A DNA stretch of 40,000 nt from Anaerolineales bacterium (GTDB lineage Bacteria > Chloroflexota > Anaerolineae > 4572-78 > J111): assembly GCA_015075405.1 (NCBI GenBank), contig JABTUK010000005.1:773747-813746 (forward strand). Reading direction: 5' to 3'. The notes beneath the pieces were generated by a model that had not been told where the DNA came from, did no database searches, and saw nothing but the letters and a program-made list of their open reading frames with translations. The position numbers and the translations under genes are program-made. This document shows positions 35,448-40,000 of this stretch, one piece after another; the stretch's first letter is position 1, and each line of letters begins with the position of its first letter.

Positions 35448-35450
35448 AAA

Positions 35451-35474
35451 GCCTCCTTCCACGTGGAAGGAGGC
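35451..35474. terminator. Perfect 24-nt palindrome; likely terminator after the ATPase gene
   Basis: gcctccttccacgtggaaggaggc followed by tttgtattt. A related hairpin (gccccttccgcgtggaaggggc) is at about 39933-39954. Confidence 0.6.
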
Positions 35475-35546
35475 TTTGTATTTAGTCGGCGAAGGAGTAA
35501 TACTAACGCCTCACGGATCACCTGCTGCCGCCGAGACTCCACGATT

Positions 35547-36164
35547 TTATTTAGGTAATATCAGTGTCTCATTTTCCTCAAGTTCTTCGGTGTCTACTTT
35601 ACCTCCATAAGAATAAATTACTACCAACTTCTTTCGCTCACCAGGAGGTGTATCACCGAGAACTCTCTTGTGCGCCTGCATTTCAAGTCTTCCTGCTGAT
35701 ATGTTTGCCCTCACCTTATGAGTAACATTATTCATTTTGTCTTTTGCACCCCATACCGCATGATGAATGGTTAAAGTTAAAAAGGGAGACTGAGCATCTT
35801 GTAGACCAGTTATTAGTTTATCCCAAAGTTGGGGGTCTTTATAATCTACATATTGAAGAGTTTTCAATCGAGGGTGCAGTTCATCAGGCTTAATGTCTAT
35901 TAACGGAATCACCCTCACTCCTGCCCCGTATGCAAAAGCCCACTCGTAAGTTACATACTCTGACGCTTTGGCTTCCGGTGTCATTATAACAATGAGTGCA
36001 ATAGATTTTCTAATTTCCTCATCAATTTTCTTTCGCCAGTCTATTCCAACATGTATATTACGATCTATCCAAACATCAAAACCTGCTTCTTTAAGTTTGA
36101 TCTCCAAAGGTTGAACAAAGTCAATCTGATCACGTTGGTAGGAAATAAAGATTTGGGGCAACAT
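35547..36164 (-). CDS. TIR-domain protein with a C-terminal beta-rich domain
   Basis: IFISYQRDQIDFVQPLEIKLKEAGFDVWIDRNI...IALIVIMTPEAKASEYVTYEWAFA (TIR_2-like, with the conserved Glu). C-terminal LTIHHAVWGAKDKMNNVTHKV...LGDTPPGERKKLVVIYSYGG. Confidence 0.85.
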   Translation of the reverse strand: MLPQIFISYQRDQIDFVQPLEIKLKEAGFDVWIDRNIHVGIDWRKKIDEEIRKSIALIVIMTPEAKASEYVTYEWAFAYGAGVRVIPLIDIKPDELHPRLKTLQYVDYKDPQLWDKLITGLQDAQSPFLTLTIHHAVWGAKDKMNNVTHKVRANISAGRLEMQAHKRVLGDTPPGERKKLVVIYSYGGKVDTEELEENETLILPK

Positions 36165-36216
36165 TCACCTCGCTCATCTTCGTTCAAGGAACCTTATTAG
36201 TAACCTACTATCCACT

Positions 36217-36627
36217 TTACAATGATAAATAAATACTGATGAAAGTAACTAAGATAATGGAAACCAGTATAACGCCATGAAAAGCAACGAGTGTTTTTGA
36301 AAGAGTTACGGAAGCCCAGGGAGCAACTTCGTCTTTGACTTTGGAGACATTCATTGAGAAGTCTATCTCTTCCTCGGATAATCCGCGAACGTAGTCATAA
36401 AGTTTTCTGAATAACCTCTCCTGGTGTAAAAAGTATCCATCAAGACCCCAGAAAACTATTGCTGGAAAATAAGCAAGATATACAAACAATAATTGCTTAC
36501 CCCCAGCTGCCAATGCAAACATTGCGGAAATTAGCACAACACTCCAGCCCTTTAATAAGAACGAGTTGGAAGAGAGCCGATTGACTACTCCCTGAATCAT
36601 TTCCAGGTGTGCAAGTTTGTTCGACAT
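36217..36627 (-). CDS. Small three-TM membrane protein, upstream partner of the TIR gene
   Basis: Start set at the ATG at 36627, which has AAGGAGG 6 nt upstream. TM segments GWSVVLISAMFALAAG, LLFVYLAYFPAIVFWGL and LVAFHGVILVSIILVTFISIYL. 52-nt gap to the TIR start. Confidence 0.65.
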   Translation of the reverse strand: MSNKLAHLEMIQGVVNRLSSNSFLLKGWSVVLISAMFALAAGGKQLLFVYLAYFPAIVFWGLDGYFLHQERLFRKLYDYVRGLSEEEIDFSMNVSKVKDEVAPWASVTLSKTLVAFHGVILVSIILVTFISIYLSL

Positions 36628-36648
36628 ATTTGCCTCCTTTTTAGTCTC

Positions 36649-36703
36649 TAACATCGCCGTTCAGTTGCACGGACCGCGCATGTCAACTGCATCAGCGATG
36701 TTA
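36649..36703 (-). promoter_or_regulatory. 55-nt hairpin immediately upstream of the 3-TM gene RBS
   Basis: taacatcgc...gcgatgtta outer stem with an inner cagttgca / tgtcaactg stem. No U-tract. Confidence 0.45.
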
Positions 36704-36759
36704 GCCAGTTTACCCTTTAATATCTTGTAGTTTCTGCTTTATGAGATCCGTAATCTCAA

Positions 36760-37095
36760 TTATCGAGTAGTCCTTTGAATTAATATAGCCAACTGTGGGA
36801 AGTATTTCTTTGAGTTCCGTATCATCAGTTGGGAATATGATAAATCTGCCTCAATCAAATAAGCCTGGTACATTTGGGCTTCGTTGAAATTACATTTGTG
36901 GAGGCTGGCCTTGACCAATTTAGCTTTTCTCAGATTAGCTGCTCTAAAATCGTAGCAGTTGTTAATTACTGGGTGAGTCTCTGACGGTTTACCATGAACC
37001 TTCAGAAAAGTGATTTCCTGTCGGTATTTGCCAATTCGCCATCTTGTAAACCATTCGCTTTTTCGCAGTTCGGCTCTTTGACCTCGATTACTCAT
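36760..37095 (-). CDS. Short pentapeptide-repeat-like protein
   Basis: 111-aa ORF. FRAANLRKAKLVKASLHKCNFNEAQMYQAYLIEADLSYSQL has the A(D/N)LxX periodicity. A TATAAT lies about 25 nt upstream. Confidence 0.4.
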   Translation of the reverse strand: MSNRGQRAELRKSEWFTRWRIGKYRQEITFLKVHGKPSETHPVINNCYDFRAANLRKAKLVKASLHKCNFNEAQMYQAYLIEADLSYSQLMIRNSKKYFPQLAILIQRTTR

Positions 37096-37183
37096 ACTCT
37101 ACTCGACAAATATCTCATTATAATCAGTTACACCAAGATTCTGAGCACCGACTAGTTTTTCCATAGCTGTAAGTACCGCTATT

Positions 37184-37300
37184 AAACAAAAAGCGCCGCC
37201 CTTTGACCAGGCGGCGCAAATATGCTACCATGCACAATTAAACCGGGCTGGTGGCACACACACCTGATCCGGGTGAAGCCCCGTTGCAGCGGGGCTTTTT
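37184..37300 (+). repeat. Structured ~115-bp unit, copy A (hairpin 1, conserved linker, terminator-like hairpin plus T5); candidate small RNA or cassette boundary
   Basis: aaacaaaaagcgccgcc-ctttgacca-ggcggcgcaaatatgctac...aaaccgggctggtggcacacacacctgatccggg..agccccgttgcagcggggcttttt. Near-identical copy at 39763-39877. Confidence 0.6.
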
Positions 37301-37583
37301 CATAGTATAACATAAGCGGGCTGGATTGACAACAAAAACAAAAACGGGTAAACCTTTTAGATTACCCGCGAAGTTGGCGCTGGCCTTTTTTAATAGCCGC
37401 TACCTTCTACATCTATTCGTTTGATTACAGCCTAGCTTTTAATGAAACTTGATGTCTACATAGCATATACAGTATTATAGGAGTTCAAACACTACTAGAT
37501 TTGGTATAGCCCGCTATAGCTACAAAAGTTCTTACCCATTTGGATGAATCCGATTAATGGTGTAGAATCATTTGCTAAATAGA

Positions 37584-37828: not shown

Positions 37829-38377
37829 ATGTTGAAACTGTATGCTAACGAGTTCTCTGAAATCCCCATAGTGCTTTCTAAAAGAGCAGACTTACGTGGG
37901 GCAATGATTAAATTAGTTGAAACGGAATCAGTAGCTGGCAAAGTTACGGAGGGGGGAAACCGACTTGATCTATTTAGATCAGTATTAAAGCCACTAATTA
38001 TTGGTGAATTGACTCTCACTAATGCATACCAGAGGACAATGCTTCACCTTACCAGAGAGAACTCAATCCATGCTGGTAACAATAAGGTTTTTGCAACTGG
38101 GTGGGCTGAAAGGCTTGTACGTACCCAGTATAGCCGATTTTACAACCAAGCTGTAATGGAAGAGTTACTTGCAAAGGGACAGACAGAATGTTTTGTTCCA
38201 CATTCATCTGAAGAGAACGTAGGCTCGAAGTGCTCACTCTATTTGGCTGGGAAAGCACATAATCTCAAGGCTCTTTATAATCTTTTAATTTCCTCTTATG
38301 CAAAAGGTTCTTGGGACAGCTCTCCCAAGATACCCGATCATCCCCATTGTACCCATGTGGTAACTCCAGTTTTATAA
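37829..38377 (+). CDS. Hypothetical 182-aa protein, family not recognised (possible Cys/His metal site near the C-terminus)
   Basis: Strong RBS AAGGAGG 4 nt upstream. AT-rich codon usage. ECFVPHS...SKCS...DHPHCTHV. The TIR-like gene follows 19 nt later. Confidence 0.65.
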   Translation: MLKLYANEFSEIPIVLSKRADLRGAMIKLVETESVAGKVTEGGNRLDLFRSVLKPLIIGELTLTNAYQRTMLHLTRENSIHAGNNKVFATGWAERLVRTQYSRFYNQAVMEELLAKGQTECFVPHSSEENVGSKCSLYLAGKAHNLKALYNLLISSYAKGSWDSSPKIPDHPHCTHVVTPVL

Positions 38378-38396: not shown

Positions 38397-38921
38397 ATGA
38401 CGTACTTGAAAGAAGATCAACTTCGGAATATAGCCAAATTTAGAGGTAATTCTAGATTCTTAGAGTCTACCAAATCAGTGGCCAAGGTAAGTATATTTCT
38501 TTCCCACAGTCACAGGGATAGAGAGATTGTCGAGGGATTTATTACTTTATTGGCAAATTCCAGTCAGATTACAATTTATGTAGACTGGCAAGATGGAGAC
38601 ATGCCTAGAATAACAAATAGAGATACAGCTCAACGAATTAAGTTAAAGATAGGGGAACTTAATCTCTTTATGATTCTTGCCACAAAAAATGCCATGAATT
38701 CTAAATGGGTTCCCTGGGAGATTGGTGTTGCTGACAGCAAAAAGCCTCTAAATAGAATTCTTGTTGTCCCTGTTGCAGACCCTAGTGGACACTTTTATGG
38801 AAACGAATATATGCAATTGTATCAACGGATTGAAGTGTCTAGTAGCGGTGATTTGGGAGTATTCGAACCCAACGCGATTAGTGGATATACAGTTAAAGAA
38901 TGGTTAAAGAGCCATCTCTAA
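38397..38921 (+). CDS. Short TIR-like domain protein (ThsB-sized)
   Basis: VSIFLSHSHRDREIV...ITIYVDWQDG...LATKNAMNSKWVPWEIGVAD. Paralogous to the convergent ORF at 38931-39524. Confidence 0.75.
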   Translation: MTYLKEDQLRNIAKFRGNSRFLESTKSVAKVSIFLSHSHRDREIVEGFITLLANSSQITIYVDWQDGDMPRITNRDTAQRIKLKIGELNLFMILATKNAMNSKWVPWEIGVADSKKPLNRILVVPVADPSGHFYGNEYMQLYQRIEVSSSGDLGVFEPNAISGYTVKEWLKSHL

Positions 38922-38930
38922 ATGACTTTA

Positions 38931-39524
38931 TTAGACCATGTGTTCTGTAGGATTTTCACCTTTAAGCCAAGCAGAAAAATTTACGTATTTGTTTTCAGTC
39001 TCATTAACCCAAAGTTGGTCATTGTTTGCCCTACTGAGTGCTTTTGTGACATAGGGATAAAGCCCCAGATACTCTTGGCCTTTGTAATATTCAGAAATCG
39101 TCACTTGATCCGAAATTGGCACAATGGCAACCCGACCATGTATACCATCTCCATAACCGAGTTCCCAAGGCATCCATTTAGACTCCGGAGAATTAATGGA
39201 AATCGCATACAAGAGACATCGGCATTTTTTGATCATATAGCGTAACCATTCGGCTGTTTCTCTAGAAACCTGTGAACGATTGTAGGCAGGCTCTTCTATC
39301 CAGTCAATAAAGACTGAGCACTTGAAATTTTCGAGTTCAGTCTTAAGCCCTAAAACGTACTCTGAATCGAGGTACCTGTGAGATAGGAAAATATCAAAGT
39401 TATCACCGCTTTTAGCTTTGAATAACACATCTTCCAACAATAAAATATCGGATTCAGATTTAACCGAGTATGAATATCTAAATTTAGCTACCCTCTCTAA
39501 CTCGGGTTTACTAAATAAGGCCAT
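38931..39524 (-). CDS. Short TIR-like domain protein, paralogue of 38397-38921
   Basis: FDIFLSHRYLDSEYV...SVFIDWIEE...SINSPESKWMPWELGYGDG. Shares the AKFR, FLSH, (V/I)DW, SKWxPWExG, YxGxEYxxLY and WLK motifs with its neighbour. Confidence 0.75.
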   Translation of the reverse strand: MALFSKPELERVAKFRYSYSVKSESDILLLEDVLFKAKSGDNFDIFLSHRYLDSEYVLGLKTELENFKCSVFIDWIEEPAYNRSQVSRETAEWLRYMIKKCRCLLYAISINSPESKWMPWELGYGDGIHGRVAIVPISDQVTISEYYKGQEYLGLYPYVTKALSRANNDQLWVNETENKYVNFSAWLKGENPTEHMV

Positions 39525-39762
39525 TGAATCTCACCTTTTTAAGAAAATTCTCAAGTATAAGTAGGCCAGTTATTCCGCACAATAGTTGCTCTCTAAATGT
39601 CTCTTTAGTAATGAAAACTACAAAACACCCTTCTGACCATGCTTTAGCCTCTTATTAAATATGATAATCACTGACCCATGTATCCATAACACTGACGGCA
39701 TCCATAAGATTTGCCCCACGAAGGCATCAAAATTGATGGTGCCACGGTCCTAAGATAACTTG

Positions 39763-39877
39763 AAACAAAAGCGCCGCCTGGTCAAAGGGCGGCGCAAATA
39801 TGCTACTAGGTACAAAATAAACCGGGCTGGTGGCACACACCTGATCCGGGCCAAGCCCCGTTGGCGTGGGGCTTTTT
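39763..39877 (+). repeat. Structured ~115-bp unit, copy B
   Basis: aaacaaaagcgccgcc-tggtcaaag-ggcggcgcaaatatgctac...aaaccgggctggtggcacacacctgatccggg..agccccgttggcgtggggcttttt. The loop of hairpin 1 is the reverse complement of the loop in copy A. Confidence 0.6.
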
Positions 39878-40000
39878 GATTGCCATTATGATAACATAAT
39901 TTAGTTGAATTGACAATCAGAATTACAAATAAGCCCCTTCCGCGTGGAAGGGGCTTATTGATGGGTACTCCTACAAAACTCAAACTGTTCGAGTTTTGTA

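Follow-up and report, generated by a model that had tools for sequence, protein, structure and literature searches.

A probable ThsF-type effector gene of type V Thoeris adjoins an apparently recruited TIR gene in an Anaerolineales genome

Introduction

What role does a small membrane protein play when its gene lies immediately upstream of a TIR gene in the genome of an Anaerolineales bacterium? The locus in question is near one end of a 40,000-nucleotide (nt) stretch of contig JABTUK010000005.1 (positions 773,747 to 813,746), which was analysed as a whole and is here called the window; coordinates are positions within it. The gene for the membrane protein of 136 amino acids (aa), here thsF, the TIR gene downstream of it, whose product has a beta-rich tail and is here called TIR-beta, and a 55-nt hairpin upstream of thsF are all on the minus strand. 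An initial annotation of this DNA had proposed that the two genes form a module in which a TIR enzyme is paired with a small membrane-disrupting effector. The results below favour the part of this proposal that concerns the membrane protein, which belongs to a TIR-linked, ThsF-type family, and argue against TIR-beta as its conserved partner; we consider it probable, though far from settled, that thsF codes for the effector of a type V Thoeris anti-phage locus.

Results and Discussion

The membrane protein and its TIR-linked family

The 136-aa protein has three hydrophobic segments (residues ~22–42, 44–66 and 110–134), and an AlphaFold2 model of the monomer built with 64 homologues is all-helical, with helices at residues 2–43, 53–81 and 111–135 and a predicted local distance difference test score (pLDDT) of 96.9. 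We predict a topology of an N-terminal cytoplasmic amphipathic helix, a hairpin of transmembrane (TM) segments TM1 and TM2, a cytoplasmic helix and TM3, in which the cytoplasmic helix would carry many basic and acidic residues that are invariant (R17, K26, E70, R74). A structure search with the model found no solved structure like it and the protein matched no family in Pfam or NCBIfam; the PADLOC model PDC-M50A matches it over its full length (E 1.2e-50). Domain scans recognised no Macro, SLATT or other ligand-binding domain in it, as the initial annotation had also remarked. Homologues all begin at the M-S/E-x-K position, where the ATG is preceded by the ribosome-binding site (RBS) AAGGAGG; the spacer between them (CAAAT) counts 5 nt and not the 6 nt first reported, and an alternative ATG at 36654 that would give a 145-aa product has no RBS. 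The gap to the TIR-beta open reading frame (ORF) on the same strand was correctly measured at exactly 52 nt (36217 to 36164). Every family-invariant residue is retained in the protein, the ratio of nonsynonymous to synonymous substitution rates (dN/dS) of thsF is 0.15 against its nearest DNA relative, that of the TIR-beta gene is 0.16–0.30, and both genes are under purifying selection.

Relatives of the protein are numerous. A protein database clustered at 90% held 2,867 matches, the best 120 of which are 70–99% identical to it, with a Brocadiales and a Zixibacteria metagenome-assembled genome among the named sources, and a library of 50%-identity representatives held 4,099 related clusters. 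Members were found in 423 species genomes, archaeal as well as bacterial, and also on 137 plasmids, IncF plasmids of E. coli and Klebsiella among them, and plasmids and phyla are spanned at 55–82% identity. The family is large, and its conservation is unusually high. Its gene neighbours were surveyed using the ORFs of 78 genome loci and TIR hidden Markov models (HMMs) seeded with Pfam- and PADLOC-confirmed sequences, and TIR linkage was counted on the 74 loci having at least 600 nt downstream. A TIR gene was directly downstream on the same strand in 57 of these 74, adjacent on either side in 61 and within 5 kb in 67, with two or more TIR genes in 18. Among 30 sampled downstream genes, Pfam and PADLOC models identified 26 matches to PF08937 (ThsB_TIR), 7 to TIR_2 and 23 to PDC-M50B; TIR_2-type TIRs adjoin thsF in loci L018, L069 and L111. 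The same pairing of a thsF-family gene with a TIR gene was found on annotated plasmids of Terribacillus, E. coli and Desulforapulum. The initial annotation had let its proposal depend on whether homologues of the three-TM gene are linked to TIR or other defence genes elsewhere, and the linkage to TIR genes is tight.

Relationship to ThsF of type V Thoeris

Type V Thoeris consists of ThsB and ThsF, the latter being a three-TM protein labelled DUF2270 (PF10028) (Yirmiya et al. 2025, bioRxiv 10.64898/2025.12.03.692087). In the same work ThsF was modelled with AlphaFold3 as a homo-heptameric channel with basic inter-protomer pockets, its ligand site was inferred to form between protomers, and the ThsF of the Bacillus thuringiensis system was triggered by 3' cyclic ADP-ribose (3'cADPR); the type V systems protect against phages, and islands with multiple ThsB genes are also described (bioRxiv 10.64898/2025.12.03.692087).

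It is chiefly the partner TIRs that tie our family to these systems. In Table S1 of that paper, the TIR 2642724563, listed as 'DUF2270 - Type V', is 73–77% identical to TIRs directly downstream of family genes (L005, L008, L010 and L052), and the TIR of row 2641859513 is 52–55% identical to the 165-aa class of partner TIRs. The validated ThsB of B. thuringiensis DAR 81934 is 47% identical over 243 aa to the TIR beside a family member on Terribacillus pT1, and that of Bacillus sp. 1NLA3E is 45–48% identical to TIRs beside family members and to a ThsB-type protein encoded in the window itself (38931–39524). In addition, PF10028 is matched by 14 of 64 family representatives, the best match being that of P0162, which is 52% identical to the window protein and scores 25.2 bits against a cut-off of 25 bits. 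An hhalign comparison of the window protein with DUF2270 aligned the stretch TM1-TM2-(Q/E)xRxxR, a sensible region of TM1, TM2 and a basic helix. Based on the TIR linkage, which includes classes published as type V ThsB, we therefore read the 136-aa protein as a putative ThsF-type three-helix effector, and we conclude that the family is likely what Yirmiya et al. call ThsF, or at least its bulk.

Some results weigh against this identification. The 136-aa protein gives no PF10028 match even at E 10, and the hhalign comparison, made with nine canonical DUF2270 proteins, returned a probability of only 5.6% (P 0.007). PF10028 also finds nothing in five family-carrying genomes whose TIR is 73–77% identical to the published type V TIR. 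Because the PF10028 and profile-profile results are poor for the window protein and these genomes, identity with the published ThsF would be carried by the partner TIRs together with weak family-level matches. Direct DUF2270 membership of the window protein is not supported by these comparisons, with no Pfam match and a weak profile-profile score, and the tie of the family to canonical DUF2270 seems remote. As a separate observation, the same genome encodes a canonical DUF2270 domain (PF10028, E 4e-64) in a 372-aa open frame far from the locus (G000:C3:257069-257614). Such long DUF2270 proteins are present in 17 of 201 sampled genomes of the phylum, and any relationship between them and the ThsF-type family is remote at best.

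For annotators, the apparent identity of the PADLOC PDC-M50A family with the ThsF effector offers a usable link between the two, by which a gene with no Pfam match is placed in a described anti-phage system; the family itself is widely distributed.

The adjacent TIR protein

Pfam TIR_2 matches the 205-aa TIR-beta protein with an E-value of 3.3e-23; the domain occupies residues 1–125 (nt 36164–35790) and is followed by the beta-rich tail (residues 126–205, nt 35789–35550). The AlphaFold2 model (pLDDT 83) shows a TIR fold over residues 1–125 and a separate beta-rich tail. In Foldseek searches its best matches were the NAD-cleaving TIRs of SPARTA TIR-APAZ, SARM1 and AbTir, and the closest structural and PADLOC matches together are NADase effector TIRs (SPARTA TIR-APAZ, SAVED-TIR and SARM1), while a sequence profile of the domain best matched AbTir-type TIRs (PDB 7uwg, 7uxu and 8g83). 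Glu74 is invariant in 27 TIR-beta homologues and aligns with the Glu of the AbTir WTNYE motif, and the catalytic position is intact. AbTir-type TIRs make cADPR isomers. TIR-beta resembles these NAD+ hydrolases in its conserved Glu, its fold and its best profile matches; AbTir differs in that its N-terminal region is a coiled coil and it lacks a lectin-like tail, and it does not form part of a Thoeris system.

The tail reads as the initial annotation quoted it and is conserved in ~27 full-length TIR-beta homologues. The resemblance to DUF3395 suggested for it there finds weak support, as PF11875 (DnaJ-like_C11_C, the former DUF3395) matches 22 of 27 homologues, all below the Pfam cut-off (the tail in the window scores 17.5 bits against 27.1). 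A profile of the tail matched SUEL-type rhamnose-binding lectins (5h4s, E 1.1e-11 summed over three repeats; 2zx0, E 0.001) along the motif a-x-n-D-v-f-G-D-P-x-x-G-x-x-K-x-L-x-V-x-Y. While the tail shares this motif and a mixed beta/alpha content with the SUEL lectins and PF11875, the alignment covers no more than the C-terminal half of the lectin domain and the lectin cysteines are absent. Moreover TIR-beta is cytoplasmic, so that sugar binding by the tail cannot be assumed.

A recombination seam at the thsF stop codon

The initial annotation had treated the two genes as a module, and the comparison of gene contexts does not bear this out. There are ~30 full-length TIR-beta homologues (47–81% identity), and none of the eight distinct other contexts in which they occur has a ThsF-like gene within 3–4 kb. 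An HMM of the tail likewise had no match in the 78 thsF loci, and the two most closely related thsF genes, whose products are 93% and 87% identical to the window protein, have ordinary ThsB_TIR genes downstream. At the DNA level, window positions 36645–36222 are 87% identical to the two closest thsF loci, and positions 36222–35546 are 85% identical to contigs carrying the TIR-beta gene as a solo gene. The alignment places the seam precisely: the thsF relatives read ...TTATCA TAA AGGAG and continue with thsB, and the window reads ...TTATCAT followed directly by TGTAAAGTGGATAGTAGG..., the leader sequence of the solo TIR gene. This leader also accompanies the TIR-beta gene in other genomes. The recombination junction coincides with its 5' end, and the leader supplies the last codon and the stop of thsF (...TTA TCA T/TG TAA, the slash marking the junction). 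The seam therefore indicates that a canonical thsB was replaced by the TIR-beta gene together with its 58-nt leader, at which thsF would have gained one codon and a new stop. On this comparison TIR-beta appears to be a recruit in the slot usually held by thsB and not a canonical partner.

No terminator is predicted between the two genes, and thsF and TIR-beta probably share a transcript. Upstream of thsF there is a strong minus-strand terminator (37217–37193), so any promoter of the pair must fall between ~37190 and 36640, a stretch occupied only by a 111-aa ORF with pentapeptide repeats. At the other end, between a convergent HerA-like gene (end 35447) and the end of the TIR-beta gene (35547), a perfect GC-rich hairpin is likely a bidirectional terminator closing the thsF-TIR transcription unit.

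The solo genes define an uncharacterised family of TIR plus lectin-like proteins. A conserved partner for this family was sought in the eight contexts and rejected, there being no neighbour common to them except a ~260-aa protein in two of the eight. Its copies (L097 4997–5788 and L104 2406–3176) are 40% identical and stand next to the solo TIR-beta gene on opposite strands; the L097 copy has no Pfam or PADLOC match and the L104 copy no PADLOC match. Ten sampled neighbours of solo TIR-beta genes gave a single weak PADLOC match, to a CRISPR-associated PD-(D/E)xK model.

Two ThsB-type genes upstream of thsF

The low-GC island in which the pair lies also holds two further TIR genes, 1.8–2.9 kb upstream of thsF, whose products match PADLOC ThsB with E-values of 1e-53 (38397–38921) and 4e-54 (38931–39524). 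The first is 38–43% identical to TIR genes located 7–39 nt upstream of thsF in loci L012, L041 and L062. The second is 46% identical to the TIR domain of the 1NLA3E ThsB and 35–38% identical to TIRs beside thsF in L017, L048 and L054. By these matches, the two genes seem equally good or better partners for ThsF than TIR-beta. A 182-aa protein encoded next to them has no homologue in the 78 thsF loci examined and was dismissed as a part of such loci. The 2.6-kb cassette of these three genes is bracketed by two copies of a dispersed repeat (37182–37332 and 39760–39916), which consists of a GC hairpin, a conserved linker and a terminator-like hairpin, the loop of the first hairpin being inverted between the two copies. 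At least four copies are in the genome, further ones being on other contigs (G000:C4:1011642-1011760 and G000:C6:328164-328278).

Comparison with known defence systems

The locus shares with type V Thoeris a small three-helix membrane effector adjoining a TIR gene, partner TIR classes that (for the family) are those listed as type V and include relatives of both validated Bacillus ThsBs, and an island with multiple ThsB genes. It differs in that its effector does not match PF10028, the label given to ThsF in the published work, and in that the adjacent TIR is a TIR_2 plus lectin-like protein, solo elsewhere and with no match among the Table S1 rows compared. With the PADLOC system PDC-M50 (PDC-M50A plus PDC-M50B, PADLOC-DB v2.0.0) it has in common the PDC-M50A match, and PDC-M50B is found in 23 of 30 sampled downstream partners elsewhere; however, the adjacent TIR in the window has no PDC-M50B match, so the locus would not count as a complete PDC-M50 system.

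The TM effectors of type II Thoeris, the cyclic oligonucleotide-based antiphage signalling system (CBASS) and the pyrimidine cyclase system for antiphage resistance (Pycsar) follow the same logic, in which a nucleotide-derived signal makes a small membrane protein kill or arrest the cell, but no Macro, SLATT or other recognised ligand-binding domain and no cyclase gene is present at this locus. In type I Thoeris a ThsA with SIR2 and SLOG domains stands beside ThsB, whereas SIR2, SLOG and Macro were not found among nine ORFs scanned in the island and the adjoining integrative element or among five scanned in the next 5 kb. Nor was any other domain of a Thoeris effector recognised in the island or in those five ORFs, and ThsF is the only recognisable Thoeris effector of the island. 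The system is thus of a known kind (type V Thoeris, or PDC-M50 of PADLOC), and its uncommon feature is the recruited TIR plus lectin-like gene in the thsB slot.

Candidate signal sources and competing explanations

By analogy with the published systems, a TIR protein of the locus would sense infection and convert NAD+ into a cyclic ADP-ribose isomer; this signal would bind an oligomeric ThsF, which would breach the membrane and abort the infection. We expect ThsF to be driven by the adjacent TIR, by the two upstream ThsB genes or by all three. That TIR-beta is a genuine signal source we hold to be very nearly, though not quite, as probable as the opposite: its slot, its orientation, a TIR domain like that of AbTir and the absence of an intervening terminator speak for it, and its solo family and own leader against it. 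Carrying that conserved leader, and belonging to a family that is otherwise solo, TIR-beta may work alone, which together with the eight contexts devoid of a ThsF-like gene weighs against the pair as a functional unit. We tentatively propose, as an account somewhat short of even probability, that the TIR-beta gene, which usually stands alone, was inserted into the slot of thsB exactly at the thsF stop and became a new kind of ThsB whose tail would sense a phage cue and whose signal would open ThsF. If so, solo TIR genes and Thoeris sensors would be interchangeable parts, and the locus would preserve a natural sensor swap at nucleotide resolution. The precise junction lends itself to a simple experiment on whether Thoeris effectors accept the signals of newly recruited TIRs, and it is this seam and the solo TIR family that are most worth an experiment, the system itself being of modest interest.

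The strongest competitor is that the locus contains two independent units. TIR-beta would then be a single-gene module sufficient in itself, such as an abortive-infection protein that depletes NAD+ and detects the trigger with its tail; it would have come to adjoin thsF through mosaicism of the island, with ThsF served only by the two ThsB genes. This would explain why TIR-beta homologues never stand beside a ThsF-like gene and have no conserved neighbour across the eight contexts, why the gene has its own conserved leader of 30–58 nt and why NADase effector TIRs come closest to it in structure and in PADLOC; both upstream ThsB genes are also of classes that directly flank thsF elsewhere, one of them matching a validated type V ThsB. 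However, the junction keeps the thsF frame exactly and TIR-beta sits in the thsB slot in the same orientation with no intervening terminator. Between thsF and the ThsB cassette there are a terminator, the dispersed repeat and 0.5 kb of non-coding DNA. Moreover, the nearest TIR-beta relatives with solved structures are AbTir-type and were deposited as NAD(+) hydrolase, and since no known defence gene was recognised next to the solo homologues (the weak PD-(D/E)xK match being the exception), even a defence role for solo TIR-beta would be no more than putative. Taking these points together, we regard two independent units as rather unlikely, if still a serious contender.

We consider it very unlikely that thsF is an orphan that lost its cognate thsB in a rearrangement and lies inert, with the pentapeptide fragment and unrelated TIRs, in a decaying island. 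A canonical thsB of PDC-M50B type is indeed absent, the ORF upstream of thsF is likely a gene fragment, and orphans do exist, since 7 of the 74 family loci are without a TIR gene within 5 kb; yet thsF is an intact ORF with a strong RBS, all family-invariant residues and the low dN/dS given above, and three TIR genes are within 3 kb of it. Least probable of all, to the point of being nearly discounted, is a pair unrelated to phage defence, such as a membrane protein and a TIR-like protein in a housekeeping or signalling role. The genome has its canonical DUF2270 gene elsewhere, which would leave room for such a role, but the genes are in a strain-specific low-GC island, of which the tested 545-bp part is absent from 30 relatives, the family is carried by plasmids and across phyla, and phage protection is published for type V systems whose partner TIRs are of the same classes (bioRxiv 10.64898/2025.12.03.692087). 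We therefore retain, as the probable reading, a ThsF-type effector gene of a type V Thoeris locus.

The hairpin upstream of thsF

The initial annotation also reported a 55-nt imperfect hairpin near the thsF RBS, which is present as stated: it has a 12-bp outer stem and an inner stem, and ends 9 nt before the RBS. The 111-nt stretch containing it has a minimum free energy of -30.9 kcal/mol (z = -2.7); of 200 shuffled sequences, 1 reached a fold of equal stability. There is no sign that it is a conserved regulatory (riboswitch-like) RNA. It occurs once in the 9-Mb genome and is not a dispersed repeat; it has no Rfam match at E up to 1; and as a conserved thsF leader it can be dismissed, for no comparable stem-loop precedes the gene in the two nearest thsF relatives and the DNA common to the two closest loci starts at 36645/36641, just past the hairpin. 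A search for its stem-base pattern in metagenomes returned 19 matches, all with unrelated interiors, which is about the number expected by chance (a hand estimate for 20 fixed bases). Its ends (GGCTAAC and GTTAGAG) are each one mismatch from the integron attC boxes RYYYAAC and GTTRRRY; an attC site was rejected, as pairing is unbroken through the outer 12 bp and leaves no spacer unpaired, there is no array or second site, and the thsF relatives do not have it. With no T-run after it on either strand, it is not a canonical intrinsic terminator. Our reading is that the hairpin is probably a local, non-conserved stem-loop at the edge of the recombined thsF block; the rearrangement may have left it behind, or it could form a 5' mRNA stem.

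Organization of the low-GC island

The GC (guanine plus cytosine) content falls from 55–61% to 39–42% at ~35500 and returns to 55–60% just past the end of the window, so that thsF and the TIR genes sit inside a 4.4-kb low-GC island (Table 1). The 111-aa ORF, located between the upstream minus-strand terminator and the 55-nt hairpin, is probably a truncated gene carried along in the island. The 545-bp segment that holds this ORF and the hairpin (36646–37190) was not found in 30 relatives, five of them of the same genus, and this ruled it out as native chromosome.

Table 1. Features of the low-GC island and its border in the window
Feature	Position	Strand	Basis or remark
13-bp perfect GC-rich palindromic hairpin	35448..35477	.	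terminator-like score; minus-strand stem then TTTTC
205-aa TIR-beta protein	35547..36164	-	TIR_2 plus SUEL-lectin/DUF3395-like tail
58-nt leader of TIR-beta gene	36165..36222	-	DNA comparison
136-aa ThsF-type three-helix membrane protein, predicted effector	36217..36627	-	PADLOC PDC-M50A
Shine-Dalgarno AAGGAGG	36633..36639	-	within DNA block common to other thsF loci (36645-36222)
55-nt imperfect hairpin	36649..36703	-	folding; genome-unique
111-aa ORF, short pentapeptide-repeat stretch	36760..37095	-	single pentapeptide-repeat match, E 3.7e-9
Dispersed-repeat copy 1 (~120-150 bp, structured)	37182..37332	+	genome repeat comparison
182-aa protein, no family match	37829..38377	+	ORF
ThsB-type TIR protein, 174 aa	38397..38921	+	PADLOC ThsB
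ThsB-type TIR protein, 197 aa	38931..39524	-	PADLOC ThsB
Dispersed-repeat copy 2	39760..39916	+	far end of low-GC island

Variant loci of the thsF family

Some arrangements seen in other members of the family are recorded here in their own right. On the IncF plasmid pAA of E. coli (L135, NZ_PP261912.1, 2459–3797) a thsF-family gene and a gene for a 287-aa TIR protein lie between two copies of IS26, and the relatives present on ~76 Klebsiella and Escherichia plasmids all bear the annotation hypothetical protein. In two Candidatus Poriferisodalis loci (L025 and L033, 5405–6508) thsF is followed, with a 4-nt overlap, by the gene for a 367-aa protein in the place of the TIR; this protein matches the 5-hmdU DNA kinase helical domain PF18723 (E 1e-107), and a TIR gene lies 1.2 kb beyond it. 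The locus of the closest thsF relative (L111, 400–1869, 93% identity) has a gene for a 489-aa VWA plus TIR_2 protein upstream and a ThsB_TIR gene downstream, and is another multi-TIR arrangement with a TIR_2-type sensor.

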